64,000 nt of DNA, taken from positions 1-64,000 of the forward strand of contig JAUCBJ010000915.1 of assembly GCA_032718475.1 (NCBI GenBank), in the 5' to 3' direction. Numbering within the stretch: position 1 is the first letter of the stretch; each line of letters begins with the position of its first letter. Shown here in pieces: positions 18,615 through 53,253 of this stretch. The notes beneath the pieces are model-generated. The model saw only the letters and a program-made list of their open reading frames with translations. It searched no databases and was not told where the DNA came from. This stretch comes from Nemertoderma westbladi. Its lineage: Eukaryota; Animalia; Xenacoelomorpha. The position numbers and the translations under genes were made by a program.

Positions 18615-18635
18615 TAATTATGCAACGGTCAGTAA

Positions 18636-24080: not shown

Positions 24081-24244
24081 ATAACCTTTCTTGTACCTAC
24101 TGTATGTATTCTTGACAAGATACTTGACGCCATCAACAGACCATTAGCTATGCAAAAGTACGAATTTTCCACGTTTAGTAATTATTAAAGCTGAATGTTA
24201 ACTGGTGGCAGATGGAAATCAATTAATACAATGGATGAAGTGAA

Positions 24245-24705
24245 TTGAGAAGATTATTTAGAGCAGCAGTAGTTCCATTTGTACTCCTCTAATGGGAGTC
24301 CATGCTGGGCTCTAAATGCTGAGGACACCAAATGTCTGGATGGCACATTCACAATAATGCTACGTCGGGTTCACTATGTCATATAAAATGCACACATCTC
24401 AAATCAGACACTACAGATATCCCATTGTTCCCCCCAAGCTTGACACTAGAACAAAGCCGCCTCCGCTTTGCAGGACATTGTTTTCGCCGCGGGCAGCAGC
24501 CTGTGCACAATCTTGTACTTGGAGTGAATAAACATGGTGGACAGCCCATGACTTTCTTGAGACGCATCTTAAAGGACACTGGACTTGAAGATGTGAATAA
24601 TGTCGCGAAAGTCATGGGGGATAGAGAGTTGTGGCGTTGCTATTTTGTCGTTAAACATTATTCAACAGCACTGCATGCCAATTATGGATTGCATGGTGGT
24701 GGCAA
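24245..24705 (+). mobile_element. RTE-like LINE 3' remnant
   Basis: C-terminal motifs RLRFAGHCFRR and TFLRRILKDTGLED..MGDRELW. Confidence 0.7.
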
Positions 24706-25697
24706 ATTATTTTTGTTAAGAGCTTAGCAACTCAATGTACAGCTTGAATCCTAAGCGAAACCGGAAACCGGCTTAGCTTTGTGTCTGAGGCCAAGGAGAG
24801 TGGCTCAAAGAGAGGCACAGGTCAACCTAGAAATGGACTGAATTGAATCCTGAATTGAATTGGCCTTGAATTGACATTAACAACTTTAATCCCGGAAGAT
24901 TTTTCGAAAGGTGGAAGTCCGGCACAAGTCTACATTACTGCCTTTATGCAATATGGACAAATACACTAAAACTGATACTTTAATTATCTCAAGGAATCAA
25001 GAATAGACACATCACAGAAATGATCGATGTAGTGGGTGTAGACACCTTTAAAATAAGAGTAGAGTCATTAGTTCTTGAGTTATTTTACAAAATGTCAAAA
25101 GTATGTCCACAAATTGATACTTGATATTGAGTTGACCCATATTACACACATTTTGTACAAAAACTATAGTGAACTAATCATCTTTAATTTTGAAGGTCTC
25201 TGTATACACTAAATCAATTAGTTGCCGTGATGTATATATTTTTGATGCCTTAAGATAAATAGAAGTAAATTTTTTAGTGTATTTACTGTCTATAAATCAT
25301 CAAGGCACTCATGTTGACTTGTGCCACACTTAACATTTTCTGCAATATCTCAAGAACTGTTTGCGCTGCGCTTGTTTTGGTGGTGTCTACCCCCACTAAA
25401 TCGGTCATTGCGGTTCGAATGAGCATAATATTAATGCATTCGGTAATATTAATGTAGTAACTTAAAGTTGTCCATCGCGAAAATTGAGAATAAGAGTCAC
25501 TTGCACCAAAGAGTAGGTTCTGCCCAATATATACAAGTACTGCTTTCAAATAACGTCGTATGGATCCTAATAGGATCCAAGTCACTGACTCACTACTATT
25601 GGTGTTAGGATTTAATTGGAAATGAAATTTAGCTGTAAGCGGATTCAATTACACTTCATTACCCACCAGAAAATGGGATAGTGGCATTTTAGCAATA

Positions 25698-26225
25698 TGT
25701 CGGAGATACGAGATTACCAACATTAATCTCGTATCATAACCAACATTGGGGGGGGGGGGGGGGGGCAACGCAAGCCCCGAAGCCACATAGAAAGGAAGGT
25801 TAGAGGTCAAACCACCTCGGAGGGAACACAGCTAGTAGAGGCTAGCAGCAGAGGGGAAACACTCACAGAGAGTGCCAGGGTGACAAGTAGCATATTAGCC
25901 AATAGAGGGGATGGAAGCACGTGATAGGGAACAGGAAAGCATCCATTGGGTAGGAGGCCAAGGTAGAGTAGGAGGTGAAGCAATATTTAGTGTATCAATC
26001 ATATATTATGTCAGATTCTTGGATTGGTACATCAGTTGGTTATTCAGTTTAGTGCAGACCGGTAACAATTATTGACCGTCATTGGCACTATCATACCGGT
26101 ATCTATTATATCTGTATTTCTGCCGTATTAATTGTGCTATCATTTTCTAACATCAAGAGACAACACGAAACTCTTATTGTTTTCTCCAACGGCCTCGGCC
26201 AAGCTGTTAGCACCATCCCAAAGCA
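25698..26225 (+). repeat. Putative 5' LTR of Bel-2
   Basis: Starts TGT, ends CA, followed after 3 nt by PBS-like TGGTGACGCG (26229) about 100 bp before the gag ATG (26326); no 3' copy in window to confirm. Confidence 0.45.
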
Positions 26226-26228
26226 GAA

Positions 26229-26242
26229 TGGTGACGCGTACT
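26229..26242 (+). promoter_or_regulatory. Putative tRNA primer-binding site
   Basis: TGG (complement of tRNA CCA) + TGAC, partly resembling the tRNA-Trp-type PBS TGGTGACCCCG. Confidence 0.4.
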
Positions 26243-26325
26243 ACAATTACCCGGTCGGGATCTCCGATCCCGTCACAGTCAATAATTTGCCAACTGTGAC
26301 TGCCAGAGACAGTAAAAGAATAAAG

Positions 26326-29300
26326 ATGAGCGACAGAGAGCCCCGATTATCTGAGGGAGAGAGGACGCCTCCGCGGACCCCGGACGATACCAACCAAACG
26401 ATCCGTGAGGCTGTGACGAGACGGTATCGGCCTGCCACGCCGGATTCGCCACGTGGACGATCCGGCTGCCCAAGCGGAGGGCGGCCGTCAACCACGAGGG
26501 AGAGACGAGTCGACGCACGATGGCGGTCGGAGTACCGAAGTCGCCGGCCAGCCACAGGCTGAGGGCGATGGACGGCCCACCGGAACGGCGACGGTGGGGC
26601 CGCCGGTACGACTCCGAACCAGGAGAGGAGGAGTCGGTGAAGAGGACGTCGGGATGAGTGATCGGCTACGACGGGCCTACAACGCCACCAAGAAGTTACT
26701 GAAGGAGGCCAGAGAGGGAGGAAAGGTAGACCAGCCTAAGTTACGACAAAGGCTACGTGAGTCGAACAAACATTTCCGGTATTTAGTCCATTATGGAGCC
26801 TGAAGTAGTGTACGTAGGGCCTTACTTAGTGGATGCTAGGGGAATTGAGTCAGTGGGTTGGGCGGATCCGCACGAGGGCGAACCTGAGGTTAACCCCGAG
26901 GATTCGGTCTCGTCAGTTAGCGAGAACCCAAGAAAGCGGGGGAAAGTTAGTAGGACAGAAAGGCGACGGGAGTCCGTCACGACCGATAAGTCCGCTACAT
27001 CCTCCGCAAAAGCAAGAAGGGTGTTGGAGATAGATCTGGCGTGTCAACTAGACATGGTGGCGCTAGACCAGAAAGAGTTTGAGAGGCAGCTGGAGGAGGG
27101 AACTGCGTTATTAGAGAAAGAGAGAGAGTTAGCGAGGGAATGTAGAGAGAAAGCCGAGAGGGTGGCGAGAAACTATAGAGAGCGGGAAGAGAGAGAGAGA
27201 TAAACGAGCGCGAGGAGCGGGAGGCGAGAATAGAGAAAGAGCGCAAAGAGCGAGAAGCGGAAGAGGCAGCGAGGATAGGGAGGGAAATGAACGAATGTAA
27301 AGTGCGAGAAGCGAGAGAGGTAGAGAGGGCAGAGAGAGAAACGAACGAGCGTAGAGAGCGGGAGGCGAGAGAGATAGAAATGGCGAACCAAAGTTTGCGA
27401 GAGGATAGAGAGAGAGAGAGAGCGGGAAAGCGTATGCGGGATGATATGCATACCCGGTTGAGGGGACTTATGCAATATCAGGCTAAGCAAAGGCGCCGAT
27501 TAGAACTGGCGCAGTTGGGATTATCTGAGAGTGAGGCTGGCTCGGGTAGTATTTACAAGGAGCCAGAAGTAATGGAAACGTTTGTTAATACCCCACTTAC
27601 AGGGACAAAATAATTTAAATAATTTTGATCATAATATTGTTGGTAATGGTGCTATTGATACGAACGCAGGAAACATAGGTGGTCTGACCAGCGAGAGCCT
27701 GCAAGGCCATGTAGTTAGTACGCAGGAAGTAGCGGGGGTGAGTCACCCCGACGGGAGCCTGCAAGGCCACGTAGTTAGATAGGGAGCAATGGGGGTGAGT
27801 CAACCCGACGGGAGCCTGCAAGGTCACGCAGTGGTAGAGGGAGAGGTGGGGGCGAATAGACCCACCCACAGTAGAGACAACGCGTCGACTAGAGAGGGGC
27901 GTAGAAGCGAACTACGAGGTAGTGAAGTAATAGGTGGCGAGTGGGGGGGGGGGGGGGGGCTACGGGCGCCCCACGACGAGAGATTAGTTCCGAGAGGGGG
28001 GGGGGGGTAGAGAATGCCGCACAAGCGTTGGCGGATAATGCACGGGGCGAGTTAGGTGAACCGCGGCACCCGACGACGGAGAATAGTAGGGGGATTATGA
28101 ATATCCCCAGCAGCGTCCAACCGGCTAGAGAGAGAGAGGTTGGCACCATGAGCGGGCGAGCGACAAGACGTCGAGCCCAGTCGGAAGACATAAGAAGAAC
28201 AGTGGAGTTTAACCGGGAGGTCGAAGAGAGATCTCGTGAGCTGGAATGCTACACTGAAGAGAGAAGGAGTGAAGAGAATAGGAGAAGCGTTGCTACGAGC
28301 AACCGGAGAGCGAGGACGGACAGCGAACCGTCGGTAGTAGAGATGGAGTTAGAGAGTCAGTGGTATCAAACTCCGGGAGATTGCCGTCGCCCCGGAGAGA
28401 CGCAAGCCTGGCGAGATATACCAAATGCCGGGAGAAGGGTACAGGATGTACCAGTACGAGGACGAGAACAGGAGAGGGGATCGAAGAGAAACTTACCGAC
28501 GGGATGTAGCTGCCGATCGAGAGTACGGTAGTCGCAGGGAGGACTTCTTGGAATATTCGAGAAGATTAAACTTTGGTCCGGAAGGACACAGGCAGACTGC
28601 AGGACATACTGTAGGCCTTACTGCACATACTATAGGCCATGCTGGGAAGAGATAGTGTAGGCGATAGGGCAGCGCGGACACGGGATTACACCGGAATCGC
28701 GGTAGATACCGGTAGTAGGCAGAGTGGATAGGCCTATACCGGTACCTGCACACCAGTATGACTATAATATGCAGGGATATAACATATACCCAGGGGAGGG
28801 GGGGGGTTATTGCCGATAGGTGTATGGGCCCCAATATATTAACATCAACCCCAGTACCAAACATAACACCGGTGGGGGGGGGGGGGGGGGGGGGGCAGGG
28901 TGACATTCCCCCATTACAATATCAGCAACACACTCAACCGAGAACAAGAACTTCAAACCCCCTGGACCAGAAAGATGTGCGAACGGAGATATGGAGGGGG
29001 CCGTTACCCCCAATGATATATCCGACACAGAAAAAATCAACAGGCCCGACGGGCAGACCGCACCCAACAGGAGAGTCTGTACAGCATCCCTCGAACCCAT
29101 TGGAAGCACAGGCGATGGGAATGGCAACACTTATCGATGCGCTCAAGACCAGGATCGAGCTACCACCAGTTGAGCCATTTAAATTCGACGGAAGCAGACC
29201 GGAAGAATACCTGCAATTCCGACGCATGTACAGCAACGAAATATTAACTAAGAATCTGACGCAGGCGGAGTGCCTAAAATATTTACAGGTATACACAGGA

Positions 29301-32300
29301 GGCCCAGCGTACGACATCGTGAGGCAGTATCAAGGTATCGAGGGTGGCTTCACGACTGCATGGCGGGCCCTAGACAGGGAATACGGACACCCTGCCAAGA
29401 TCATCCGGCAGACCTTGAGGGGAATAACATTGGGTGGCCTACAGGATAACCCTGTTAGTATAAAGACTTTCGCGAACAAGGTCGAGAAGGCGCTCATCGT
29501 GCTAAAGACGCTGGATGCGCCATACGAACTCAACGCATCGAATAACATCACCACGATAGCGCAGGCACTGCCGATCTAGCTGCGGAACAAATGGAGGAAG
29601 ATCGCCTTCTCCACCCGGGAGAAGAAAGGTGCGGAACCGGGCCTAGAGGAAATGTCGAACTTCCTCATTCACGAAGCAGAATTAATCACGGACCCAGTCT
29701 ACAGCGAGGATAGTCTGGGGAAGGCGCCGAGGGCCGAATACAACAGGCCGAAACCAGAGCATAATGCGGCGAATGCATTACCAAAGCTTAGACAATCACT
29801 GCCATACGCTGCGACGCAGGGGACTGCTAGTCCACATATAGCCGGGGGTAGGGCCACACCATGGCATGGACAGGGGCAAAATAACAACACAAATAAATAC
29901 AACCCCAACACGCCCAGTAGGCCAAACCCAAACAATAAGAACAGTAGGGAACTAGGCATGAACGTAAGTGCGATACGCAGCGCACTGTATAGGGACGGCT
30001 ATAATCCGAGACACAAATGCCAATTACATTCGAACGCACTTCATCAGACCATGAACTGCAGGTACTGGCAAGCGTTACCCAAACAAGATCAGATAGAATA
30101 CGCGAGGAAGAGTGGAATCTGTCATCGATGTGTGGTGGGCGGACACAAGGCTGAGCAATGCAAAGAAACACCAATTAAGTTCGGTCAAGGCAAAGGGCAG
30201 ACGATGGCGACAAGCACCGTAGGTGCGAAGAAAAGGGGAACGGTACTACTCGGGGTAGTACCAGTGAGGGTAATAGGAGAAGGCGGTCGATCAGTTACCA
30301 CGTTGATGCTGGTCGACAGCGGAGCAGCCTTCACATTGGTGGAGAATTGGGTGGCCGAGGAGATAGGGTTACAGACGAGGCCAAGCAGGATGGCGGTGAC
30401 TACTATCTCCAGCAAGGATGAGGTCCTGGAGATGAGGACGGGAAGGTGCGAGATATTCAGCAATAGCACCGGGATGTGACTATGGGGCGACCATCGACCC
30501 CATCCAGGTAATAGAATCGATCAACATAAACGCCAGGCGACCAACTAACATCGAGGTCAAGCAATATAGATTCCTGGACGAAATCGATTTCTCGATACCG
30601 GAGGTGGACATCCGGAAGGTATCCATCATAGTGGGAATGGACTGCCCGACGGCCCACGAGAGAGTACAGACGATCTTTGGGGAGGACAAACAGCGTGATC
30701 CGATGGCAGTTTTCACACCATTCGGATGGACACTAAGCGGCCCAATCAAAACCAAAATTCCGTTTAGGATGTCGGAGACATCGGGGTGCATGTTCGCAGG
30801 AACCATGAGGGAGATGGAAGATGAAGGAGCAGAAGAGCAGCTTAGGAGACTGTTAAGACAGGACCTCGAGGGATTAAAGGAGGCCGGGGTCGGAACCTCG
30901 GTAGAGGATAAACAGGCAATAGAGAGTGTGAAGGAGTCAATGAGGTGCGACGAGGGACGGTACACCATAGGCATGGTGTGGAAACAACCGAAATTACCGT
31001 TGCCTGACAATAAGGGGATGGTACTCATGAGGCTTCGCAAACTGAAGCAAACGCTCAAACGGAGCCCCGAGAAGGATGAGTACATCCATAGGACAATAAA
31101 GAAGTATGTCGAGAAGGGATGGGCCGTGGAGTTGCCGGTCGACGAACTGAACAGGGACAGGACCTACTACCTGCCACTTCATGTGGCTTTAGACCCAAAG
31201 AAGGGTAAACTGCGGATGGTGGTTGACGCATCGGCTAAAACCAATGGCAAGAGCCTAAATCGACTATCTGCTGGAGGGCCCCAATATCTACAACTCGGGG
31301 ATAGAGGTCTTGTTGAGATTTAGAAATGGGAGGCACGCCTTCACGTGCGACATCGAAGGCATGTTCAACCGAGTCCGTGTGACGGAGGAGGACAGCGACA
31401 GCCAGCGCTTCCTATGGTACAACGGCGACGAGGAACCGTCGGCGATACCGATGTATAAAATGGTGGTGCAGAACATGGGGGCCAAGTCTGTCCTCATTTA
31501 CGACGACTATGGCTGTAAGAGATACGGTAGAGGGGAAAGAGGGGAAGTATAGTGCCGGAGCGATCGACATGATTCGACGCGGATTCTATGTAGACGACGG
31601 GATGAAATCTGGGAATACGGTTGAGAAATACTGGAGACAGGGCGCGAGGTTCGCGACATCCTGAAGAGGATCCGGATTCAACCTGACTAAGTTCCAATCC
31701 AGCTCAGAGGAGTTCATGAGAGCCATAGAAGACAGGCGGCCAGAGTCGACCATGGACAACCCCACAACAGCCAAGGGACAGGACATGGCGAACAAGAGAG
31801 TGGAGTCTCAGCAGAAGGCGCTGGGGATCATGTGGAACTGGGAGACGGACGAGTTCAAGTATCAACTGAGCCAGGAGGGCGCGGAGATCCACACAAAGAG
31901 AGGCTATGTATCGTACATAGCAAGGATATACGATCCCTTAGGCCTAGCATCCCCATTGTTAGTCACGGGGAAGCAGATACTAAAGAAAGTATATAAGCTG
32001 AAGGACGAGTGGGATACGGAGGTCCCGGAAGAAATAAGCAAACAATGGAGTAAGTGGACGGGGAGTTTAGAACAGATGGGGACATACAGCATGCCACGTG
32101 TGTATTTCCCAGACGGGGACATGACGGATCTGGACCTACACATGTTCTCCGATGCATCATTGGAAGCATACGGAGCGGCACTCTACCTGGTACAGCGAAA
32201 GGGGGCTCATAAGCCCAGACTTGCATTCAGTAAAGCAAAGTCGACGCCACCAGATTCAGCGTCAGTCCCGAAACTCGAGTTGACAGCAGCGAGGTTAGGA

Positions 32301-34200
32301 GTAAGGGCCACAGCCTACTTAATGGACGCTATACGCAACATAGTGGAGACACACTACTGGACGGACTCCATGGTAGTGCTGGGGTGGCTGCATAACGAGA
32401 AGACGAGATACCCTATATTGCGGTGGACGAAATAAGGGCGACGACGATTAGAAAGTGGCATTACTGCCCTACCGACGACAACCGCAGATTTGTTATCAAG
32501 GGGCGTGGCACGCCACACTTTCTCAAAGAAGGAAGTGTTGTGGCAACACGGGCCACACTTCCTGAATGATAGATTAGCCTGGCCACCAATGAGGAAGGTG
32601 GACCCGGGCTCAGAGGAAGTAGCACCAGAAGGAGAGGGAGAAGATTCAGAAGGAGAAGAGATATATAGTCAGATGGTGAGGGAGGTCAAGGAGGTGCCAC
32701 CGAAATCAGAAGAGCCATGCGACAACCCGACGGATAGGTTACTCAGCTACAGCTCCAGCTGGTATAAGACCAAGAAGTTGGTAGCGTACTGGAGGGCCTA
32801 CGGGGATTTCCTTAAGGGAGTTGGCAAGGATGCCAAGGGGAAACCAAATATCGATCTGGAGGGAGCGGCCAAAGCCGTAATACGGTACGAGCAGAGAAAG
32901 AACTACGCGGACGAAGTGGATAGAGTTAGCAAGCAACAACATCTTCGTCGAGACAGCGAGCTCAACATGCTGTCCCCACAGCTAAGCGATGACGGGATTC
33001 TGGTGATGAACTCCAGAGTGCTGAACAACAACAGCCTAATCATCCCACCAAAACCCATAATCATTCCCAACAAATCGCCGATAGTCCACCAGATCATTTG
33101 GGACTCCCATAAGTCGATATTACATGGTGGCACCAATCAGACTCTCACAGAAATACGGAGGACATTTTGGATCACACAGTTAAGGAAGAAGGTGAAGGCG
33201 GTAGTGAGGCAGTGCCAGACCTGCCGACGGACGAGAAAGGAGAGGGCCGTGCAGGAGATGGCGCCATTACCGGCCAATAGAGTGAGACAACACGACCCGC
33301 CATTCACGCACTGCGGCATAGACATGTTCGGGCCGATTAAGATTAAGGTGATGCGACACACGGAGAAACGCTACGGCATCATCTTCGTATGTAACAACAC
33401 GAGGGCGATAGGAATAGAACTTGCCCAGGACGCTACGGCATCGGCATTCATTAATGCCTTAGAGAGATTTAGAGACCGCAAAGGAGGAACAATAGCGGTG
33501 ATTTATTCCGACAATGGGACCAACTTCGTGGGAGCGGAGAACGAGTTGGCAGAGGCCTTTGACATCCTAGAGGGAGACGATGTCAGGGCGGCTATGAGGA
33601 GGTGGCAAGTGAAATGGGAAAGGAGGACGCCGTATGCGCCACATACCCTAGGATGTGTAGAGAGACTTGTGGGTAGTTCTAAGCATCTCATGACGAAGTT
33701 GATGAACACCCACATGGTCACAGAGGACATACTAAGAACGGTGCTAGCTAAGTGCGAGGGAATCATCAATAGCAGACCGCTATATCCGGAGAATGACGAC
33801 CCAGAATCACTGACGTGCTAACACCGGGACACTTTCTGATGGAGAGGCCGGCGACCATCGACATGCGGAGTGTAGACCCAGATGACATACACTCCCGACA
33901 GAGTTGGAAAGTCGCCAAGGCGATAAGCGCCGAGTATTGGAGGAGGTGGGTCGAGGAATACCTACCCACATTACACAGGAGGAGTAAGTGGAGAAACACC
34001 ACTAGGGAGTTGAAGAAAGGTGACTTGGTGATCGTCACTGACGACACAATCATCAATAACCAGTGGAGGCTAGCGAGAGTGGTAGACACTTACCCCGACG
34101 AGGACGGAAGAGTCCGATCGGTGGAAGTGCTGATAGGGGTAAGATAGGAGCAAAGGACAGAAAGACCTACAGGAGGGCTGTAGGAAAGTGCTGCCTTCTA
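26326..34200 (+). mobile_element. Bel/Pao LTR retrotransposon gag-pol (Bel-2); complete domain set broken by frameshifts and stops
   Basis: Gag PFKFDGSRPEEYLQF..YLQVYTGG..LDREYG; knuckle CHRCVVGGHKAEQC; PR LVDSGAAFTLV; RT YYLPLH..KLRMVVDASA..SLN, LRFR..CDIEGMF..QRFLW and FYVDDG (31584-31601); RH FSDASLEAYG, PKLEL, WTDSMVVLGW; IN H..ILHGG..CQTC, GIDMFGP, SDNGTNF, ERLV; DUF5641-type WRRWVEEYL..WRLARV..DGRVRSV. Confidence 0.95.
27693..27835 (+). repeat. Three ~57-60 bp repeats inside Bel-2 gag (SLQGH[V/A]V)
   Basis: GAGCCTGCAAGG(C/T)CA(T/C)G three times. Confidence 0.75.
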
Positions 34201-34381
34201 GAAGGGGCACCATAGAGTTTAGTCGTCCAAGTGTTGGACTGAGGGGGGTGGGATTGAGGGCGAGACGCCCTTCCCGCATAAATATAAAAAATAAATAATA
34301 AATAAAATAAAATTAAAAGAAGTGAAATAAATAAAAGGTTAGAAAGAGAAAGTAATGTAGATAGTACGTAGTAGTAAGTAA

Positions 34382-34885
34382 GTAGGTAGTTAGAGGTATA
34401 GGGAGTGTGGTATATAGGCATACCACGGGAGTAAGAGGATACATAGTACCGTTAGAAGGTAGTTAGAGGTATAGGGAGTGTGGTATATAGGCATACCACA
34501 GGAGTAAGAGGGTACATAGTACCGTTGGTAGTTAGAGGTATAGGGAGTGTGGTATATAGGCATACCACAGGACTAAGAGGGTACATAGTACCGTTAGTAG
34601 GTAGTTAGAGGTATAGAGAGTGTGGTATATAGGCATACCACAGGAGTAAGAGGGTACATAGTACCGTTAGTAGGTAGTTAGAAGTATAGGGAGTGTGGTA
34701 TACAAACATACCACGGGAGTAAGAGGGTACATAGTACCGTTAGTAGGTAGTTAGAGGTATAGGGAGTGTGGTATACAAACATACCACGGGAGTAAGAGGG
34801 TACATAGTACCGTTAGAGTTAGAAGTATAGGGAGTGTGGTATATAAACATACCATGGGAGTAAGATGGTACATAGTACCATTAGA
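34382..34885 (+). repeat. 7-unit ~73-bp tandem array, each unit with two short stem-loops
   Basis: Units start at ~34385, 34458, 34527, 34600, 34673, 34746 and 34816; they contain GTGGTAT-N6-ATACCAC and GGTAC-ATA-GTACC. Confidence 0.9.
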
Positions 34886-34960
34886 GTTGGTAAAGTTAGT
34901 AGAGTTAGTAGAGTTAGTAGAGTTAGTAGAGTCAGTAGAGTTAGTAGAGTTAGTAGTAAG
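34886..34960 (+). repeat. 9-bp minisatellite (GTTAGTAGA)n
   Basis: Direct reading. Confidence 0.85.
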
Positions 34961-35507
34961 AGAGTAAAGAGTATGATATATAAATATATCATAGGAGTAG
35001 TAGTGATAGGGTACGTAGTACCGTAGAGGTTGTGGGCATAGAAAGCGCCACAAAAGTGACAGGGGGGCACGTGGGTACACCAGGATAAACCGTGTAGGCC
35101 GCACAAGATAGACTATTGTACTGCACAGCCCATAGAGTAAGTTAGAATGTTTGATACAGGGCCAGGAGGCTACCTGGTGCAGACTAGCACAGTAGAGTAT
35201 AGCTAGTCTACTCTGTATGCAAACTATAGGGGTTATCTAGGTAGAAATAACCCACTATGAGCGATAATAGCACATTAATAAAAATAAAAATAGTATTAAA
35301 ATAAAATTCTAACAAATTATGGTAACAGTAGGCGGAAAATTCTAGAACATAATAAAAGTAACTGACAAATTTGGGGAATTTAGGAAAATTAGCACTTTGG
35401 GGGGCACATAGGTCAAAATATAGTACAAATTTAGTGTTCTGAGAGAGATGGGCCATTACTGAACTAATACAGATCATTATAATAAACGTCACTCATCTAC
35501 TTGAGCC

Positions 35508-37244
35508 TTGGCAAGGCACCACCAAGCAGGTGAGCGAGCGAGGAAGTTCGTAATGGCGGAGAGACTTGTCAGGAAGAGAAAGATGGAAAGAAGTGGAAAG
35601 GAGATACTAGTAGACTTCACGCAAAGGCATCAGGAGGAGAAGACGAGGGGATACTACGAGCCGTTAGCAAAGGGTCACAAAGCGCGGGCGCTGCAGGACC
35701 ACTTCAGGGAGATGCACGAGAGGCGACTGGTCGGTACCTACATGACACCGTCACTAGACAATGCGATCCTCGAGCATTTTCACTACGTAGTAAAGGGAAA
35801 CGAAGCGAAGTTCAAGATACCGAAGTACCCGAGAGAACCACCAAGAATGGACTGGCGGCGGTTCGTAGAGTCCATAAACAGGGGAGGATACATGGTCCTA
35901 GACGACGAAGGGACTGTGGAGGACAAAGAGGGTTCGAGAAGAGGGTCGGCGGGGTCGGCCAGAACCATACTACTGCATTTGGCTGCACCAAATGGAGACA
36001 TATTCCTATTCGATCTAGGAACGTATGGGAAGAAGAGCAGGCTGAAATTAAACCGGTTGCCAGGGGTGGTGCAGAACCTAGTAAGGGAGAAGTCAACGAT
36101 GAAGGTGGGATCGGCGATCCGCAACGATGCGGAGAGGATCGTCGGACCGGAGACCCCCAACCTCCTGGACATGCAAGCGGTCTACAGAGCCATGACAGGG
36201 CCAGACGGGTTGGGATTGGTAGAGAAGACAGGACATTGCGGAGCAGTGGCGAAGGGCCAGCTCATGGGGCTCGTCTGCCATAAGCCGATGGTCTGGGGTA
36301 AGTTCCGAGAGGAGTACGGAGCAGAGATGGCGAACTTGTTGAAGTGGGGAGCGAGGCCAGGGAAACAGGAGGTGTATCAGTTCCAGAGAGGAGCGATAAA
36401 GATATATCAGAAGCGAAATATCCTACAGGAGGATTGGATAATGATAGGTCTATTAAACCTATTCATTGCCGTGGTTATCGGAAGAGAGCCAACGGCGTTT
36501 CTGCTATCAGGATCACCCCTGAACTACAGAAGAGCCTTCAAGGTGGCCTTCGAAGGTCTGGCAGACCACCCGGGGCTGAAGGGCGAGTCGGTATACTACA
36601 ACTGCCGGCATCTAGTAGACAGGGAGGTGGATACACCATATCAGAGGTGGGAGAATCTGGAGGCGGATAGACTGGAGGAGAAGCGACTGGAAGAAGTCGC
36701 CAGACGAGAAAGGAAGGAGGCAGACGAAAGAGAGGCGGAAGCTAGAGGAGAGGACTATGGGTTCGAGGCCCAGAACTTGGACAAGCTGAGGTGGGGATCA
36801 GGGAGCTCGGGCGAGTTTCTGGGGGAGGAGCTAGGATGGACGGAAGAATTGCCGAAACAGTCGACATCAGGATTGCAAGCGATGCCCATGCCAACGAGCT
36901 CTGAGGGCGATTTCATGAGGAAGAGACCGAGAGAACAGGAAGGATGGAAAGTTACTGGCAAAAGCCAAGGTGGGAAGGGACACAGTGGGTCTGCCGGGAT
37001 ACCGGGTCTGGATCCACTCCCAGCGGGGGATGAGGATGACGACGAGTTCAGGGAGATGCCGCCCATCGAGAGCATCGGCCACTCAGACACGGACTGGGTT
37101 GGCGGGAGAGTGGTGACGGCCAGCGGGGCAAGGGCCTTCAAGGATAAACCCGGCAAGCAGATCTGGGTGCACGAGGAGCCGGCGATGGATTTCGCGGGAG
37201 CACCATCACGTTGGGCGAGCAACCGGGAACGGCACCATGGGTAG
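35508..37244 (+). CDS. Extra ORF of Bel-2 with DEDDy/RNase D-WRN-like 3'-5' exonuclease domain (first ATG 35553)
   Basis: ExoI YMVLDDEG (35889-35912); ILLHLAAPNGDIFLFDL; LPGVVQNLVREKSTMKVGSAIRNDAERI (ExoII); LLDMQAVY; ExoIII-position IYQKRNILQED; then coiled-coil and disordered tail. Same purine-rich composition as pol. Confidence 0.72.
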   Translation: MARHHQAGERARKFVMAERLVRKRKMERSGKEILVDFTQRHQEEKTRGYYEPLAKGHKARALQDHFREMHERRLVGTYMTPSLDNAILEHFHYVVKGNEAKFKIPKYPREPPRMDWRRFVESINRGGYMVLDDEGTVEDKEGSRRGSAGSARTILLHLAAPNGDIFLFDLGTYGKKSRLKLNRLPGVVQNLVREKSTMKVGSAIRNDAERIVGPETPNLLDMQAVYRAMTGPDGLGLVEKTGHCGAVAKGQLMGLVCHKPMVWGKFREEYGAEMANLLKWGARPGKQEVYQFQRGAIKIYQKRNILQEDWIMIGLLNLFIAVVIGREPTAFLLSGSPLNYRRAFKVAFEGLADHPGLKGESVYYNCRHLVDREVDTPYQRWENLEADRLEEKRLEEVARRERKEADEREAEARGEDYGFEAQNLDKLRWGSGSSGEFLGEELGWTEELPKQSTSGLQAMPMPTSSEGDFMRKRPREQEGWKVTGKSQGGKGHSGSAGIPGLDPLPAGDEDDDEFREMPPIESIGHSDTDWVGGRVVTASGARAFKDKPGKQIWVHEEPAMDFAGAPSRWASNRERHHG

Positions 37245-37550
37245 TGTTTGGAGAGACGATGCTGAGGCGGGACAAGGACGTAGACATGGACAGAGACTTT
37301 AACGTCCAGAAGTTTGCTTACCAACGGCTCCATAGACCTAGGAGACTGCTCGGGGCAAAAGACGACTTGGGGCGGGATGTGTTGAAACACGGCTGCGATT
37401 ACTGCGGGAGGCTTACTCACCAGGAAAAGCGCTGTTTGTATCACTTCCAGAAGGGGACGAGTTGCCTCTACTGCCGCGAGTTGAGTCATAGGATGGGGGT
37501 GTGTCCGAGGTTGAACAACCGCTGTTCTAAGTGTAACTTCCGAGGGCACT
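37211..37550 (+). CDS. Frameshifted C-terminal continuation of the extra ORF with three zinc-knuckle-like motifs; truncated
   Basis: CDYCGRLTHQEKRC, CLYCRELSHRMGVC and CSKCNFRGH; composition switches to AT-rich after ~37550. Confidence 0.7.
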
Positions 37551-38649
37551 ATGTGTTAAGAGCGATGATAAACACATGTGTACTGTACTGGGCCTTTAAT
37601 GAATTTTGTAGTTATTATTATTTTGAGAGGGAAATTCAAAATCTCCAGGAGGTACTGGAAATGAGTTATCTTACCGGTGTCACAAGGAAATCAGCCCCCC
37701 CTAGAATATGCCCCCCGGGGCATTATTTCCTAGGATATTATGTCCCCCCGGGCAATTTTTCCTAGGAAATTTAGCCCGGGGGGCATTTTCTCCTTAGGAA
37801 ATAATGCCTCCCCTCAGGAAAATTAGCCCCCCTCAAAAGTCTGAAAACTGGTACGATACCGGTCTGCTGGCCCTATTGAAAAGTTTTACATGTACGCCGA
37901 GCACGTTCGGCGCAGCACTAGAACTTGCGCCGGGAGCTGGCGCAGAAATGTGCTACGCCGGGCAATGAGCCGGAAGGGTTGGCGCAGAGATGTGCTACGC
38001 CGGCGTAGCCGGCGGAGCACTGCCAATGGTAGAGATGCTGCGCTCGGCGCAGCAGGCGTCGAAATATTCCCGGCGTCGACGCTGCAGAAATTGACCCGGC
38101 GCCGGAGCAGGAATCAGCCCAGCACACCCGGCGTACATATTTGCCTGGCGCAGAAATCAGCCGAACCTAGCACCAGGCAGACAGTGAGACTGAGACAACA
38201 GACATGCGTTCATCAGACCAACAGCACAGCAACACAATAACAACTGGCATTGCAGGAGGGAGAAAGGAAACTCACACTGCAGCACTGGCTGACTGCAACT
38301 GGTCATTTATTTACGTATTTAACCTTATGCTGTTATGCAGTAGGCAGGTAGGCTATCACAGTTCCAGCTATCAGCTGATCAGTCATTATTGCTATTGGTC
38401 ATAGTCAGATTATTTATTTTACATAATATTGCTGTATTGTATAAGCTATATTTATATTATATTATATTATTTGGATGGAGACACCGCTGTCATAGAAGCG
38501 TATAAATAAAACTGCACATATAATAAAACAGGCAGACAGAATGAAGTTGAATAGTGAATAAAACAAAACGACTTATACTATGGCACTATTGATAATGAAA
38601 CAATTTATTACCGACACACATGTGTAACCATTGGAAATTGAGTTCAATG

Positions 38650-39330
38650 ACTCCAAGTGCAAGGTCATGCATGCATCTAGGTTCTAGAAATCCCCAAGCA
38701 ACTTTTTACACAATGAATGGACGGACACTTTTATCGGCAACCGAGGAACGTGATTTTGGAATTACATTTACACCAGACTTGTCCTTCACAGCATCACAGC
38801 TCACTGCACAAAGACTGCAGCCCGCTCCATGCGAGTCGTACATTTAATACGAAGAACTTTTACATATTTGGAAGCTCCGATGTTTACCCTCTGACCCTGT
38901 TATACAAATCCCTTGTTCGGCCTCTCCTTGAATACAACACAGTTGTTTGTTCGCCATTCCTCCGACATGATAAATATTGAACGTCTTGAACAAGTACAAC
39001 ACCGTGTGGTCACTCGCCTTGTACAGTTGTACTATCGCTGGCTGAGTTGTCATATGAAAACCGACTACTTGCACTCAAACTACCGACATTAATATATTGC
39101 CGTGTACTAGCCGACCTTATAACAACATACAAGTTTATCAACGGGATTAACAAAATTGAGCGAAGTAATTTCTTCCAGTTTCGTTCCTAACTCCACCAAT
39201 GCTAACACGCAACAACTTTGCAGACACCGTTGTAAACATTTGGAATCCTTTACCATTACCGGAAAGTGTTGTTAATGCACGTAATACCCTTGGTACTCAA
39301 TGATTGAGCATATTCAAAAAAAGACTAGAC
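38650..39330 (+). mobile_element. Decayed CR1/L2-type LINE RT C-terminal fragment inside the nested element
   Basis: CMHLG..YTMNG..ERDFGITFTPDLSF, LYKSLVRPLLEY, ADLITTYKFING, VNIWN. Confidence 0.8.
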
Positions 39331-40529
39331 TGCGAAATGTCCCTTAAAATGAATATATAGTGATACTCCTGTGCCCCAAGTGGCAGTAGCGAAAGCGAAA
39401 ACGATTTCTTTATTAAAATCTAGCTACAGTACCTATTATTTTCATTTTTTCAATCCCAAAAAAACATTTTTTTGTGTTAAATTTTAAAATAGAGTTTTTT
39501 ATGTTTAATTGTTTTCCTATCTTTTGTAGTTACTTTACTTTGCGCGCGTTTTATTTCTACAGTAATATTTTACTTATGCGACATACGGTACTACTGTACA
39601 GTACAGTGTACCTGCGGTACCAAATATATGTTCCGTATAACTACGTATTGTTGTGTTGTATCCTATAGTGTATTGTAAACTTGTCCTTATTAATATGTTT
39701 GCCTTTAGTACTGTATGTTGTTGAAGCCCTTGAACCTACTGTAAGTATGCTTTGCCGGTTTTTAATTTAATTTTAGTGTAATTTCATTTTTTTTTATAAT
39801 TAATATGCACCAACTGTACTGTAAGTACTGTAAATAAACTATAATTTTAAATATTTTACTAATTTTACCTGAATACCATTATCCGTATTTTTAGTACAAT
39901 AGTACATACGCTTATTAGCGTACTTTGCCAGATGTGTTCATTTTATTTTAATCTACTGTACGTGTATGTACATATGCAAAAATTAATATTATATTGTTAT
40001 TCTGGCGATATTAATAACATAACATATATACAGCTAGTCATTATTCATTCAGACATACCGTATCTGTAGCATAGACGTATACCAGACCACAGTACGTAGT
40101 ATGTAATAAAGTAGAACGTAGTACATAAATACAAGGACTAGGCCTACACTGAAGTAGTCTTTAATATTCTTTCTATAATTCATATTGTAACATTTGAGTA
40201 ATTTCAAAAAATGTACACTTTACTTGACAACAAAAATTTACATGCAGTGTTTCTTAAGTAGTTGTTTCGTAATGTTACACTTTTGGAATAAAACAACGTA
40301 CCTACTGTACTTGTTGCATTTGTCTTTATTAAGGTTTTCCGTCTCTGTATCCTTATTTTCATTTCACCCACCCACAACTTTCGTTCGTTTACAGGTTTAA
40401 GTAAACTCGGATTTGTGCAGCTGCAGTATTATAGATAACCGAATAAACTACAGGTACTGTACAGTATAACAGGCTGATTTTATGTTTTATACCAGTCAGC
40501 CCGGTGCGGCTTTGAAGAGCCGGTGGAAG

Positions 40530-40780
40530 ATTTTTCACCCGGCGCAGAATTTTGCATTGCACAGAGCCGGCGCAGGATTTTTGCACCTGGCATGGGCGTT
40601 GGTTTGCACAGAGCCGGCGCAGGATTTTTTGCACCCGGCGTGGTTTTGCACAGAGCCGGCGCAGGATTTTTTGCACCCGGCGTGGTTTTGCACAGAGCCG
40701 GTGCAGGATTTTTTGCACCCGGCGTGGTTTTGCTCAGAGCCGGCGCAGGATTTTTGGCACCCGGCGCCGCGTTCGGCGCA
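40530..40780 (+). repeat. 42-bp subterminal tandem repeat
   Basis: GCACAGAGCCGGCGCAGGATTTTTTGCACCCGGCGTGGTTTT, about 5 copies. Confidence 0.9.
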
Positions 40781-41029
40781 GAAAATAAAACTTTTCAATA
40801 GGGTCTGCTGGTAGCCACTTTTAATCTACCAACTGCAGAACTTGTAATAGTTGGAAGAATAGTACGGTACCGGTCTGCCGGTAGGTAAACAGGTAAGGCA
40901 GTAAGGGATGTAGAACAGCATACTGAAGTATCTAAGTCAGTAGGCTACTGTAGTAACTACTGGTATAACAGCAGTGCGAGTGTGTGGTGTTGTGTGGGCG
41001 CCGAGCAGCTCCAAGCTTTTTTAAGTCTT

Positions 41030-41350
41030 TAACCTGCTCCTTTCCCTGATTTGGTAAAGCGATTGTTTATTGTTTTGGTTAGAAAATCCCGCCTCTGTAA
41101 CCTGCTCCTTTCTCTCAATTGGTAATGTTATCGTTTATTGTTTTGGTTAGAAAATCCCGTCTCTGTAACCTGCTCCTTTCCCTGATTTGCTAAAGTGACT
41201 GTTTATTGTTTTGGTTAGAAAATCCCGCCTCTGTAACCTGCTCCTTTCCCTCAATTAGTTAAATGATCGTTTATTGTTTTGGTTAGAAAGGCCTGCCTCT
41301 GTAACCTGCTCCTTTCCTTCATTTGGTAAAGTGAATGTTTATTGTTTTGT
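41030..41350 (+). repeat. 68-bp tandem repeat (~5 copies)
   Basis: GTTTATTGTTTTGGTTAGAAAATCCCGCCTCTGTAACCTGCTCCTTT at ~41065, 41133, 41201 and 41269; single related units at ~47212, 52877, 56643, 58623 and 63621. Confidence 0.9.
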
Positions 41351-43194
41351 ATAATTTTTGTAAGTTTTAGTAGTAATAAGTTTTGTTTATTGTATAATTC
41401 AGGGGGGGCATAATTTCCTAAGGGGGGGCATTTTTTCCTAGGGAAATTTGCCCGGGGGGGCATTTTTTCCTAGGAATATATGCCCCCCCGGGCACATTTC
41501 CCGGGGGGGCATATTTTCCTGTTACACCGGTCGTGAAAAAGACTGAAAAGCTGTACTGCTGTGTACAGTGTACCGGTTCCATGGTTGATATTATATATCA
41601 TATTAATTGTTCGTTATGTAACTGTCAGGGATTCTACCGAATAGGCCTAACCTAATGCAGTAATGGTTATGACTCATCTCCGTGCGTCTTCGGTTGACAG
41701 GTGATCAGCTCGTTGATTCGTATCGGGTTAGAAGCTCTACCCCTAATATATACATTGGTTTAAGGTACTGTTCATCCCATTATTACAAACGAAGCAAGAC
41801 GCTACAACCTTGGGCCAATCTAAATTTACTAATAACAACCTTATATAATAACCCCATGCGGATGTTCGATTTAGTATATAGTTTATCTTAAATTTAGTAA
41901 ATAGTTATAATCTATCTTGTAATATCTATCCTACAGCCGTACTGAGAGCTGGAGAGATTTTCATTTGTGATCGTGTTTTATGTGTTTTGTCAGTGCAAAG
42001 TTGAACTTTAATCCTTTGTTTTTCAGCACTAGGCCTAGTGTTTTTCGATGTACAATATTATTGCATTATTGAGTTTACTTTGTGCCCTCTTCTTCTTTTT
42101 ATTCTTTGTTTACTGTAATATACCCAAGGTGTACCGGTACTAATAATTTAGTACACCTTGAATATACCGTATCCGTGTATAGACTGCCAATTCTGTCTGT
42201 ACGGCCTTATGGGATTGCCGTAATATAGTTTCTAGTGGTAAAGTGATGAATGTTTCTCTTGTAAATATTTATATATCTACTTATAGACTAGTTAAGTAAT
42301 ATTAAATGGTGTATCAGCTTGATAATCCCCTCCTTTACCAATTTATTTATTCAACAAATTTGTCGGCCTTACATACATTGTAATAACTAAACATTTGTAA
42401 TAGTCGAGCGTCTGATTAACGCGGTAACGCATTATAAAGTATTACAAAGAATAAACCCTGCTTGGGCAAACAGCCTCTGGCCTTCCTAATTAAAAGCGTC
42501 TCAGTTCGGCTTCCTTAAAATTAACCGCCGGAAGTTAAATAAATCATTAAATTTCGCTCACTTCCGGTATAATTTAAAATCGCTTTTAATAATCACAAAT
42601 GATATACTGTTGCACCCCATGAAGGGTGTAAATCTGTTTGTGCCTTCTTTACCGGAGCAGTATACCGGTAATTGGTTTTCATAGTTAAACTATACCTTTG
42701 TTATATAAGTACCGGTATAGTACCGGTATATATATATATATATATATATATGCATTGGCCGATAAGGGCCAGTGCGAATATATAACTTTTGAGCATACCC
42801 AACAAACTTGCTTAGATGTAAATGAAATACTAATATGATCCACTAGGGGGCTCTAATTAACAAGTAGTGAGGTATGGCCCTTCCAGAACTTTTTTCCTTC
42901 TAAAATATATTTTGAAATAGCAATAAATACCACGATGTTCCACGCAGTGGTGGAAGAAAATAATTGACACAATGGCACTAATTATAGAGTTTTCTTTAAA
43001 AAAAAAATATAGGTAGAATATTGACGCCGAAACAAGGAAAAGTGACGAGAAACAGAAGTGCAAAAATGCAGAATCTGATAATTACATATGTTTCTACTCA
43101 ACGAATTTCCCTGAAATAAATTGAACAGCAATAATTTTTGATTCATGAATAATTATTATAGCTTTTGTTGGGCACAGCTTAGCAAAGACAAGAA

Positions 43195-45386: not shown

Positions 45387-45974
45387 GCACGAACTTAGTT
45401 CCAATCGCACATTTTCAAAGGCGAACTTATGTAGTTCCAATTGAAACGCATTTAGTTCCAAAATAAATTTTACAAAGCGAACTTAGTTCCAATCGAGGCG
45501 AACTTAGTTCCAATCACAGAATATCAAAACGAACTTAGTTCCAATGGAAGCGAATTTAGTTCCAATGCATGCGAATTTAGTTCCAATGGGTACGAACTTA
45601 GTTCCAATGTTTCAATCGTGGGGATAGCCACGTGTGTAGCACGAACTTAGTTCCAATCGCACATTTTCAAAGGCGAACTTAGTTCCAATTGAAACGAATT
45701 TAGTTCCAAAATAAATTTTACAAAGCGAACTTAGTTCCAATCGAGGCGAACTTAGTTCCAATCCCAGAATATCAAAACGAATTTAGTTCCAATGAAAGCG
45801 AATTTAGTTCCAATGGGTACGAACTTTTTTCTCTAGTTATTGGAACTAAGTTCGCCTAAATTGGAAATAAATTAGCCAAAATTGGACCTAAATTTGATTC
45901 CATTGGAACTAAATTCTTTTCCATTGGAACTAAATTCGCTTGAGGCTTAAATTTGAACTAAGTACGGGGAATCG
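45387..45974. mobile_element. Internally deleted/rearranged copy of the 7787-9644 foldback family
   Basis: GAACTTAGTTCCAAT arrays matching the inverse of 8505-8785 (duplicated); ends with the family terminus CTAAGTACGGGGAATCG. Confidence 0.85.
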
Positions 45975-47413
45975 TAATTGCCAATTGCCAAATTATATTT
46001 TCCAATTGGCTGCAATATATTTACTGTAAATCTAAAAGGCCATTTTATATAATTTTGATATTTTGATAGAGCCACTGTTAATAAATTTAATGTAATTTAA
46101 CTGTACAATATGAACTCAATCTGTCTGCCAGTCTATTTCTGCCAATAGACATCAATAAAATTAATTTATGAATTTAGGGCCATATTTTATATTTTGATAT
46201 TATAAAGGGGCCACTGTTAATAAATTTAATATAATTAACTGTAGATTATGAACTCAATCTAACATGGGTGTATTTTCCTAGGAAGGCCATTTAATATATT
46301 TGTTTTAGGTTTTAGGGCCATTTCATATCTCTGTATTTCTAATTCAGGGCATATTCTAAGGAAATCTTGATATCGCACTTCACTTGGGATTTCACTTCAT
46401 GATGGCTGGGCACTTCAGTGGATGTAGACGTATATTTTTTATTATATGATACAATAACTGTTGTTAACAACGGTGGGACTGGGAAGTATGGGAGGGAGTA
46501 ACATCGTCCCCGTGTGTGTCTTTTTTGTGTCTCTTTTTACCTTCGATATTTCGTATTTTATAATCGTTTTGATGTGACACCTGGCAATGATTATATTAAT
46601 AATTAAGGTGCATAATACTAGCTCAGGCACATTTTCCATACAAAAACATTCAGTTTTAATCTCTGTTAAGAAATTTCAGATTATAACAGACTCAGCATAT
46701 TATACGATGTTATCGACGCAGATTCCATTTTTGCCAAATCTAAGGCTGCCTGACTGGATTGTGAGATGGTTAGAGGGGTCTGGATCAAGCCTTTGCACGC
46801 CGGATAGAAATAATTATAGAACATAAGGGAACACACGAGAACACAGTTAGAACATAATTAGAATACACCCCGAACATAGGCTAACACATGCACGCATTGC
46901 ACACATTAATGCACGCCTGTAATATTGTTCTTCCAATGTGACTAAAAAGTGTAGGATTCCTTATACAAGCAGCTACCTCATTTTGATTGATCTAGGATAA
47001 GTGACTACACCTCTTCCGTTGATGCATCCATAGGTCTACGTTTCAATTGACGACAAAAATTATTAGAGTTATTCTTCAAGGATCTTATAATTCTTAATAC
47101 ATCTCCAGATACCTTTTTATCAATTAGAGACAATATTAGGGGTGAGTACAAAATAAAGAACCAAGGCCCAATTAAGTAACCTGCATAATCTTGTAAAATG
47201 TGTTAACTTTCGTTTATTGTTTTGGTTCCGCCAACACGCTTCTGTAACCTGCTCCTTTACTAACTTGCTCCTTTAAATGGCAATGGGACTTAAAGCGACT
47301 TTACCTCTTTGTTTTGTACACTCTAGGGTCTTTGGTCTTAACATTAAAACTATAATTATTGCTAGCCCTAAAATTAGTTAGAATTAAAACCCAATAGCGC
47401 TCAAGGTCTACAT

Positions 47414-53100: not shown

Positions 53101-53253
53101 TTATTTATGTTGTTATGTTGTTACTCGAACGGGTTTTTGAACAACACATTCGTAGCAAGAAATTGATGTATGCAAGCGCATACATCACTGAAACTGATCA
53201 TTACACATCATCATTAAATAAATTTCCGTATTAAGAAAAAGAAAATGTCTTAT

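Follow-up and report, generated by a model that had tools for sequence, protein, structure and literature searches.

An accessory gene with a WRN-type exonuclease-like domain and zinc knuckles downstream of pol in a Bel/Pao retrotransposon family of Nemertoderma westbladi

The window analyzed here is a stretch of 64,000 nucleotides of Nemertoderma westbladi DNA (GenBank assembly GCA_032718475.1, contig JAUCBJ010000915.1, positions 1 to 64,000 of the forward strand). It contains a retrotransposon identified from its domain content as a decayed copy of a Bel/Pao element, and the gene downstream of its pol, ORF3, is an accessory gene of this repeated family. The N-terminal part of the deduced protein is supported by two unrelated methods as a WRN-type DEDD 3'-5' exonuclease domain, and a zinc-knuckle tail follows in a different frame. 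The reading preferred here, for which we judge the chances to be about even, is that ORF3 is an extra gene in the env position and that its exonuclease domain and knuckles would trim the 3' ends of single-stranded RNA, most likely blunting small-RNA silencing. The usual description of an LTR retrotransposon in animals is gag-pol, with env added in occasional cases. A DEDDy-exonuclease ORF3 behind pol is already known from rotifer elements (PMC5408684), and what appears to be new here is the Bel/Pao carrier: an exonuclease in a Bel/Pao element was not found in a search of the open-access literature. The features are as follows.

25698-26225, + strand: candidate 5' LTR, TG...CA, 528 bp, ends read in the sequence
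26229-26246, + strand: primer-binding-site-like stretch starting TGG, 3 nt 3' of the LTR, from the sequence
26326-34215, + strand: decayed Bel/Pao gag-pol, Pfam domains in Bel/Pao order
34216-35552, + strand: non-coding spacer from integrase to ORF3, with tandem repeats
34241-34253, + strand: polypurine-tract-like run directly 3' of the integrase stop, from the sequence
35553-37244, + strand: ORF3, 563 aa from the first ATG, open frame with pol-like codon usage
35868-36482, + strand: WRN-type DEDD 3'-5' exonuclease-like domain, approximately aa 106-310, from ESM Atlas, profile with shuffles, and hhalign
36630-37110, + strand: charged low-complexity linker, Glu/Arg-rich then Gly/Ser/Pro-rich, from the translation
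37394-37549, + strand: zinc-knuckle tail in a different frame from ORF3, from motifs and a weak Pfam match
~37672-41531, strand not assigned: unrelated non-autonomous TIR element adjoining the cut end of the retrotransposon, from an inverted match

The gag-pol region matched Pfam models DUF1759 (E 2e-10), Asp_protease_2 (E 5e-6), Peptidase_A17 (E 9e-43), Integrase_H2C2 (E 3e-12), rve (E 3e-5) and DUF5641 (E 2e-24). The RT pieces gave zero Pfam matches and were assigned from position and motifs. A hand count gave 8 or more interruptions, as stops or frame breaks, within 28719-34215. The element shares with the Belpaoviridae of the ICTV profile (PMC8742986) the gag-PR-RT-RH-IN order with DUF1759, Peptidase_A17 and DUF5641, as well as an LTR followed by a primer-binding-site-like start; it is unlike them in having a third gene that is not env and in extending over more than 11.8 kb before its cut end. 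The criteria used for that family were two LTRs of 0.2-1.2 kb and a primer-binding site for tRNA-Arg or tRNA-Gly, and one 528-bp candidate LTR was seen, in a copy that is cut at ~37551. This candidate is repeated in the sequencing runs; its boundaries are provisional, being those of the TG...CA reading. The original prediction that no 3' LTR separates pol from ORF3 holds in that a second copy of 25698-26225 was not found within the window, nor did any LTR sequence match behind the polypurine-tract-like run. The absence of a 3' LTR behind ORF3 has a different origin, because this copy ends abruptly at ~37551, where other copies continue, and an inverted-repeat element follows. In the latter, 37673-37814 matches 41531-41401 inverted, with loose ends at 37672 and 37675 in run X5.

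The frame containing ORF3 is open from stop to stop over 579 codons (35505-37244), and when this stretch was base-shuffled 2000 times, the longest six-frame ORF averaged 162 aa and was never longer than 462. The long open frame was therefore correctly predicted, although the predicted length of 578 aa starts at a TTG and the first ATG (35553) gives 563 aa. ORF3 begins 1.3 kb 3' of the integrase, where env would sit. Since it lies at this distance behind the pol stop, it would presumably be expressed from a spliced or subgenomic RNA. Identity as env, for which a signal peptide, a transmembrane anchor and fusion-protein homology would be expected, was rejected, with zero family matches and a charged N-terminus; the most hydrophobic 19-aa window has a mean of 1.73 and falls inside the exonuclease-like domain, at its last helix. 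The linker also gave zero family matches. Downstream, two CX2CX4HX4C knuckles are found at 37394-37435 and 37463-37504 and a third (37523-37549) is cut after its His, as had been noted from the sequence beforehand; the Pfam match of the tail to zf-CCHC_4 is weak (E 0.0025, below the cut-off of the model). The break between the ORF3 and knuckle frames falls in the overlap at 37148-37244, and a length difference in this overlap is carried by all of the depth in run X5, ~16% of that in X2 and ~1% of that in X1 and X3. We infer that the exonuclease domain and the knuckles form one continuous protein in intact copies.

Membership of ORF3 in the Bel/Pao family, as originally proposed, is borne out by codon usage, repeat depth and joints in other copies. 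With a synonymous-codon model trained on pol, ORF3 scored 0.161 compared to 0.066-0.128 for six held-out pieces of pol, while all 29 frames of at least 100 aa outside the element scored below 0. The summed contig depths of ORF3 and pol were of the same order in sequencing runs X1-X3. Contigs of run X5 join the spacer to ORF3 (35371 to 35528, side 62; 35398 to 37271, side 87) and contigs of run X2 join the integrase or its end to ORF3 (34045 to 36938, side 30; 34254 to 36426, side 20), both of the latter joints being single contigs with short sides. A piece bridging integrase to spacer was not present among those listed. The spacer contains a 73-bp unit repeated 7 times (34381-34884) and a 9-bp unit repeated 8 times (34882-34956) according to Tandem Repeats Finder; it is repeated in the sequencing runs and differs in length among copies. 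Among 16 listed of more than 4000 pieces, three diverged ORF3 pieces (~80% identity, 230-360 nt) contained 0 gaps and three spacer pieces contained 2, 2 and 11. Domestication of ORF3 by the host was also considered and found no support: 1 break in ~2 kb was observed versus ~2.9 expected (P about 0.2) at the rate of pol, taken as 8 breaks in 5.5 kb by hand count.

The assignment of the N-terminal domain was evaluated by embedding and profile methods. In the ESM Atlas, 24 of 30 hits carried PF01612 (score 0.93; 175 of 256 features shared), and PF01612 was present in all 30 named clusters, including 'Werner syndrome-like exonuclease' (0.92-0.93). These two results were counted as one source. The nearest clusters were mostly plant Werner-like exonucleases, and 4-10 in 100 shuffled proteins reached a score of 0.9 or more. 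The WRN-type profile comprised 129 bacterial WRN-type exonucleases, and its 19-sequence seed matches WRN in the PDB with E 4e-38. ORF3 was the top of 257 window frames with this profile (7.2 bits; next 1.6), and residues 1-375 scored 8.1 bits, a value above that of every one of 2000 shuffles (highest 2.8), the significant match being limited to aa 140-196. Alignment with hhalign gave P 0.0024 at a probability of just 12%, with DxE, the LA strand, FLF, KVG..D and LD in register. An RNase D profile of 40 sequences gave no score for ORF3; thus, 'WRN-type' suits the domain better than 'RNase D', and the predicted RNase D/WRN-exo (DEDDy) identity stands for its WRN side. The proposed check against PF01612 gave no match at E up to 10, a silence of the model which indicates that the relationship to the family is remote. 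Similarities to the group of WRN, EXD2, Mut-7/Nibbler and plant Werner-syndrome-like exonucleases (PF01612) are the ExoI DxE, the strands that follow and the KVG..D segment of ExoII; ORF3 differs in a 19-residue insertion and in being less than 25% identical to the bacterial members tested.

Direct searches were negative. Neither ORF3 nor its domain matched anything by sequence in Pfam, NCBIfam or the PDB, a homologue search yielded 0 relatives among 7997 scored candidates, and no relative emerged when metagenome and viral contigs were scanned for patterns. By tblastn there were no matches in plasmids and 3 in phages (E 0.9-10). The lone match in 1.84 billion representatives, a bacterial TPR protein (P0001), extends over 35 residues and was rejected as chance. 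Pairwise BLAST of ORF3 against one WRN-type protein gave E 6.4. ORF3 matched 12 of 30 conserved columns of the family, no better than chance in that 4 of 60 shuffles do as well. A single-sequence AlphaFold2 model had a pLDDT of 31 and was discarded. The family-guided model reached a pLDDT of 70 and matches DEDD enzymes with Z up to 11.1, a circular result that is not evidence for the fold, and its C-terminal half was not cleanly built (TM at most 0.49).

The predicted motifs were all found in the order claimed, DDEG at 35901, LLHLA at 35970, IFLFD at 36000, KVG at 36102, IRND at 36117 and LDMQ at 36165. As catalytic signatures they fare unevenly. Within ExoI, D117 and E119 (35901-35909) align to the invariant D and E of the family, and within ExoII, D192 (36126-36128) is in register together with K184 and G186 inside the significant profile match. 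LDMQ marks the strand following ExoII rather than the third catalytic motif, and an ExoIII motif had not been listed. For ExoIII (Y-x3-D), the family register places Arg279 and Lys283 at the Tyr and Asp positions; a second acidic candidate, E293/D294, lies ~10 residues further on, likewise in the stretch (aa 265-295) to which ExoIII would belong in this decayed copy. The ORF3 protein may have 3'-5' exonuclease activity; since in this register the Tyr and Asp of ExoIII fall on other residues and the C-terminal half is poorly modelled, the enzyme may also be dead.

The closest known arrangement is in bdelloid rotifers. Among the rotifer elements, Juno and Vesta are LTR retrotransposons of the Ty3/gypsy type. 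Both, and Athena/Terminon, are described by Rodriguez et al. (2017, PMC5408684) as having an ORF3 that encodes a DEDDy-type 3'-5' exonuclease, located like the gene reported here downstream of pol in the env position, and a role in 3'-end processing or silencing was proposed there with the function left untested. The carrier is Bel/Pao here and in rotifers includes the Penelope-like Athena. The rotifer motif is given as DEED in the same source, with the third position read as ExoII, where the present protein has Asp192. Compared by description only, the rotifer proteins are credited in that source with a Cys-His-Cys motif and no CCHC knuckle cluster, whereas CCHC knuckles are present here. The domain layout is shared with Trypanosoma brucei RNase D (TbRND; PDB 7c42/7c45; PMC7797062), described as a 3'-5' exonuclease domain, a linker and tandem CCHC fingers. 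The likeness is architectural: TbRND is a mitochondrial enzyme of the cell, is of the RNase D type and has four fingers behind a linker of 28 aa (PMC7797062), while ORF3 is of apparent WRN type, has a linker of ~250 aa and belongs to a mobile element.

In the proposed mechanism the CCHC knuckles would grip single-stranded RNA and the WRN-type domain would trim the gripped RNA from its 3' end. Trimming would blunt small-RNA silencing of the element, either because piRNA or siRNA is cut or through competition with host factors of the Mut-7/Nibbler/EXD1 type. A precedent is TbRND, which reportedly depends on its C-terminal CCHC fingers both for binding small guide RNAs and for trimming them (PMC7797062). 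If ORF3 is a trimmer, its purpose is somewhat more likely to be counter-silencing than the maturation of RNA or primer belonging to the element itself. The further proposal that Bel/Pao elements acquired a WRN/Mut-7-type exonuclease on their own and joined CCHC knuckles to it, thereby obtaining a small-RNA trimmer that suppresses piRNA/siRNA silencing, is doubtful as a whole.

Two alternatives question the gene and its domain. It is very unlikely that ORF3 is a separate repeat or host gene adjoining a Bel/Pao copy whose 3' end was lost at 34241-34253. The polypurine-tract-like run directly after the integrase is where ordinary elements end, the depth drops ~tenfold across the spacer with no listed contig spanning 34250-34400, and some copies may have an LTR after the integrase, as loose ends at repeats fall outside the listing; yet ORF3 resembles pol in codon usage and depth and has the same strand bias, contigs of two independent samples join integrase and spacer to it, and the 12 loose ends listed out of 401 include none that looks like an LTR. 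Slighter still is the chance that the accessory gene is real and the exonuclease resemblance fortuitous or confined to a fragment. The silence of the libraries, the frequency of shuffled proteins at Atlas scores of 0.9 or more, and the restriction of the profile match to aa 140-196 are consistent with it; however, two unrelated methods arrive at the family that the original prediction had already named, and the profile score was not equalled by any of the 2000 shuffles.

The remaining alternatives concern what the protein does. The main rival, which we consider improbable though far from negligible, holds that ORF3 is real and its exonuclease dead, the protein with its knuckles serving as an RNA-binding adaptor (in export, transport or packaging) or as a decoy for a silencing factor, like Egalitarian, EXD1 and Maelstrom. 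This would account for an ExoIII Tyr/Asp pair not kept in the family register and parallels Maelstrom and EXD1, described as inactive DEDD derivatives retaining RNA binding (Rodriguez et al. 2017, PMC5408684). Egalitarian structures, one with the I-factor localisation signal, are also among the fold matches, a weak point as the model was guided by the alignment. Against a dead adaptor, three of the four acidic ligands (D117, E119 and D192) are kept despite less than 25% identity to the family, and E293/D294 offers a second acidic candidate for ExoIII. An exonuclease active on DNA, which would trim the 3' ends of element cDNA or strong-stop DNA or proofread for RT, is unlikely. The WRN-type profile scores ORF3 and the RNase D profile does not, and WRN itself has DNA as its substrate, which counts against an RNA target. 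DEDDy enzymes such as WRN are described as acting on single-stranded DNA (PMC5408684). However, the knuckles parallel those of the RNA-trimming TbRND, ORF3 is separate from pol with nothing linking it to RT, and the WRN-type group includes the RNA enzymes Mut-7/Nibbler. Of the functions originally suggested, proofreading for RT has the least in its favour, since CCHC knuckles suggest a single-stranded RNA target.

For the rotifer DEDDy ORF3s, the question of purpose has stood since 2017. The presence of such a gene in yet another superfamily of retroelements, the third, with an exonuclease of another subgroup and RNA-binding knuckles of its own, suggests repeated selection for the activity. 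If ORF3 does encode an independently captured small-RNA trimmer, it and the rotifer genes would represent an anti-silencing strategy at which animal retroelements have arrived repeatedly and by convergence, and this could help explain the abundance of the family in its host; a protein acting on silencing RNAs would be one of few counter-defences encoded by transposons in animals. Since the family is highly repeated and includes subfamilies that have diverged, it probably has intact natural copies, on which selection, expression and enzyme activity could be tested. The copy in the window differs from other copies at many sites, and the 40 differences listed are mostly private to it.

The element upstream of the open reading frame under study (ORF3), which by its sequence is Bel/Pao, encodes in order the Pfam domains DUF1759, aspartyl protease, Peptidase_A17, integrase and DUF5641. 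A 528-bp TG...CA stretch (the candidate 5' LTR, 25698-26225) followed by a primer-site-like TGG lies 5' of the genes. The gag-pol is decayed, with 8 stops or frame breaks over 28719-34215 by hand count. The features downstream are as follows.

34215, + strand: integrase end, the 3' limit of pol
34241-34253, + strand: purine run after the integrase; LTR sequence does not come next
35505-37244, + strand: ORF3 open frame, 579 codons, 563 aa from the first ATG at 35553
start at ~37672: inverted-repeat element, downstream of the cut Bel/Pao end

The purine run is followed by a 1.3 kb spacer containing 73-bp and 9-bp tandem arrays. The Bel/Pao copy is cut at ~37551, where two contigs of sequencing run X5 continue into different sequence. 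The inverted-repeat element begins at ~37672. With the copy cut short and other sequence following, a 3' LTR behind ORF3 could not be seen in the window. Summed contig depth at the purine run reached ~200,000 (at 34243, run X2) versus 24,000-28,000 over the integrase end, and the purine run may be a cis-element common to non-autonomous derivatives. The sequence upstream of the candidate LTR (25300-25697) is highly repeated in the runs, indicating either that the Bel/Pao element lies inside another repeat or that the LTR is longer than called.

The longest open frame in 2000 shuffles of the same bases never exceeded 462 codons, compared with 579 for the ORF3 frame. The exonuclease-like motifs of the original prediction were all located in ORF3 in the order described, as were two CX2CX4HX4C knuckles and a cut third downstream in another frame, giving a layout of nuclease-family domain, long charged linker and cluster of CCHC knuckles. 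Other copies differ in length within the overlap of the two frames (all of the depth in X5, a minority in runs X1-X3), results suggesting that a single exonuclease-knuckle protein is likely in intact copies. The one break in 2 kb of the ORF3 region is consistent with the decay rate of pol (P ~0.2, hand calculation); thus, the break rate gives no sign of domestication by the host.

The PF01612 (DNA_pol_A_exo1) match anticipated in the original prediction was not obtained in a Pfam search of ORF3, nor was a match found in NCBIfam or among PDB sequences, and none of 7997 scored candidates in a homologue search was related. The sole match among 1.84 billion representatives, a TPR protein, was by chance. 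In the ESM Atlas, 24 of the 30 hits had PF01612 at a score of 0.93, and the remaining six, which include the best three (0.93-0.95), were unnamed eukaryotic clusters; all 30 named hits carry PF01612, among them 'Werner syndrome-like exonuclease', with the caveat that 4-10 in 100 shuffled proteins reach 0.9. A WRN-type profile was built from a bacterial WRN-type seed with 129 relatives collected, the 19-sequence seed alignment having been checked on PDB (WRN, E 4e-38; EXD2, 4e-24; Mut-7, 3e-23). The 129-sequence profile placed ORF3 at the top of 257 window frames (7.2 bits; next 1.6), and scored aa 1-375 at 8.1 bits (residues numbered from the ATG), above all of 2000 shuffles (best 2.8), the significant stretch being aa 140-196 only. 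Alignment to the WRN-type family with hhalign gave P 0.0024 at a probability of only 12%, with D117/E119 of catalytic motif ExoI and D192 of ExoII in register. A 40-sequence RNase D profile did not score ORF3. ORF3 matches 12 of 30 conserved columns of the WRN-type family, a level that 4 of 60 shuffles also reached. The Atlas and the profile are two independent tests that support the family, and ORF3 very probably holds a remote WRN-type DEDD domain, a candidate exonuclease; a false family call is the least probable of the alternatives considered.

In the family register, the Tyr and Asp columns of ExoIII fall on Arg279 and Lys283 of ORF3, and an acidic pair lies ~10 residues beyond. With 82 family sequences as a guide, structure prediction gave a model (pLDDT 70; blocks of 65-90 at aa 136-225 and 38-41 at aa 226-245) that matches DEDD enzymes, a circular result given guidance by the family's own sequences. 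The foremost rival reading, that ORF3 is a dead-nuclease RNA adaptor, is favoured by these ExoIII residues and disfavoured by the acidic pair, and is rather unlikely.

The membership of ORF3 in the element was evaluated with a synonymous-codon model trained on gag-pol, with six pol pieces held out. ORF3 aa 1-375 scored 0.161 versus 0.066-0.128 for the held-out pieces, the knuckle tail scored 0.029, and all 29 frames of at least 100 aa outside the element scored below 0, those of the FERM gene and the second Bel/Pao gag among them. The stretch is present in three of six listed sequencing runs, from two studies, X1 or X2 possibly being the source reads of the window. Summed contig depth in X1, which is not copy number, was 10,700-23,300 over ORF3 and 8,000-36,800 over pol, with a like pattern in X2 and X3. 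Among the 15 of 26 contig joints listed, the spacer joins ORF3 in X5 (35371 to 35528, side 62; 35398 to 37271, side 87) and X2 (35398 to 36132; 35331 to 35501). Joints from the integrase end in X2 (34045 to 36938, side 30, with 29 other letters in between; 34254 to 36426, side 20) are weak, as each is a single contig with a short side. No LTR-like loose end after the integrase was found among the 12 of 401 listed, which omit those at the repeat there, and no contig among the pieces listed bridges integrase to spacer. Among the 16 of more than 4000 pieces listed, three diverged ORF3 pieces (~80% identity over 230-360 nt) have no gaps while three spacer pieces have 2, 2 and 11, which hints at coding constraint on ORF3 across subfamilies. 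The pol-like codon usage, repeat depth and joints from spacer and integrase end bear out the proposal of a Bel/Pao accessory gene, and a chance neighbour of the Bel/Pao copy is most improbable. ORF3 is a genuine accessory gene in a Bel/Pao family that occurs in repeated copies, and it has a knuckle tail behind a remote WRN-type exonuclease domain.

The only solved parallel found for this layout is Trypanosoma brucei RNase D (TbRND), the fingers of which bind RNA and are required for trimming small guide RNAs (PMC7797062). Based on the TbRND fingers, the ORF3 product would, with about even probability, be an RNA-binding 3'-end trimmer translated from a spliced or subgenomic RNA of its own; a part in proofreading or in the processing of DNA ends is improbable. 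Trimming would target small-RNA silencing of the element or the element's own RNA, and counter-silencing is somewhat more likely than maturation. Mut-7/Nibbler and EXD1 have roles in small-RNA pathways. Part of this account appears in PMC5408684. That paper also substantiates the precedent, cited in the original prediction, of DEDDy exonuclease cargo in bdelloid rotifers, reporting DEDDy ORF3s of unknown function in the LTR elements Juno and Vesta as well as in Athena elements (Rodriguez et al. 2017). The available parts of two reviews (PMC6431247, PMC5718144) and of PMC6338049 likewise give retroelement DEDDy ORF3s for rotifers only. The ICTV profile of Belpaoviridae lists gag, pol and env and a size of 4.2-10 kb (PMC8742986). 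The word 'exonuclease' is absent from a Bel/Pao survey (PMC3118150) and the Troyka paper (PMC12440569), and no Bel/Pao exonuclease was found in literature outside Repbase entries and subscription journals, so that absence from print is uncertain. The exonuclease ORF3 arrangement is already known from the rotifer elements, which share it with the Bel/Pao copy; the Bel/Pao carrier, WRN-type subgroup and knuckles appear to be new.

Other features of the window are as follows.

382-2181, - strand: FERM frame, 599 codons uninterrupted, with FERM_N, FERM_M, FERM_C and FA domains; either a host gene with a single long exon or a retrocopy
3033-3965, - strand: transposase fragment (Pfam DDE_Tnp_1_7, E 1e-33), piggyBac-like
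7786-9662 and 45432-45966: nested inverted-repeat elements made of a 21-bp unit
13809-18614, + strand: second, unrelated Bel/Pao gag-protease frame, open 1601 codons (DUF1759, E 9e-12)
37672-41531: 3.9 kb non-autonomous element bounded by terminal inverted repeats, with tandem arrays (32, 42 and 68 bp) inside
46044-59227: complex array of 651-bp and 1326-1980-bp repeats, 92-100% identity; a young satellite or a tandem mobile element
47895-48470, - strand: a third fragment of a Bel/Pao gag (DUF1759), situated within one arm of the 352-bp inverted repeat region at 47492-50100

The second Bel/Pao frame has a long N-terminal region ahead of DUF1759 and ends near the RT start. The 3.9 kb element contains a second inverted pair near 37835-37888 and 40786-40881.
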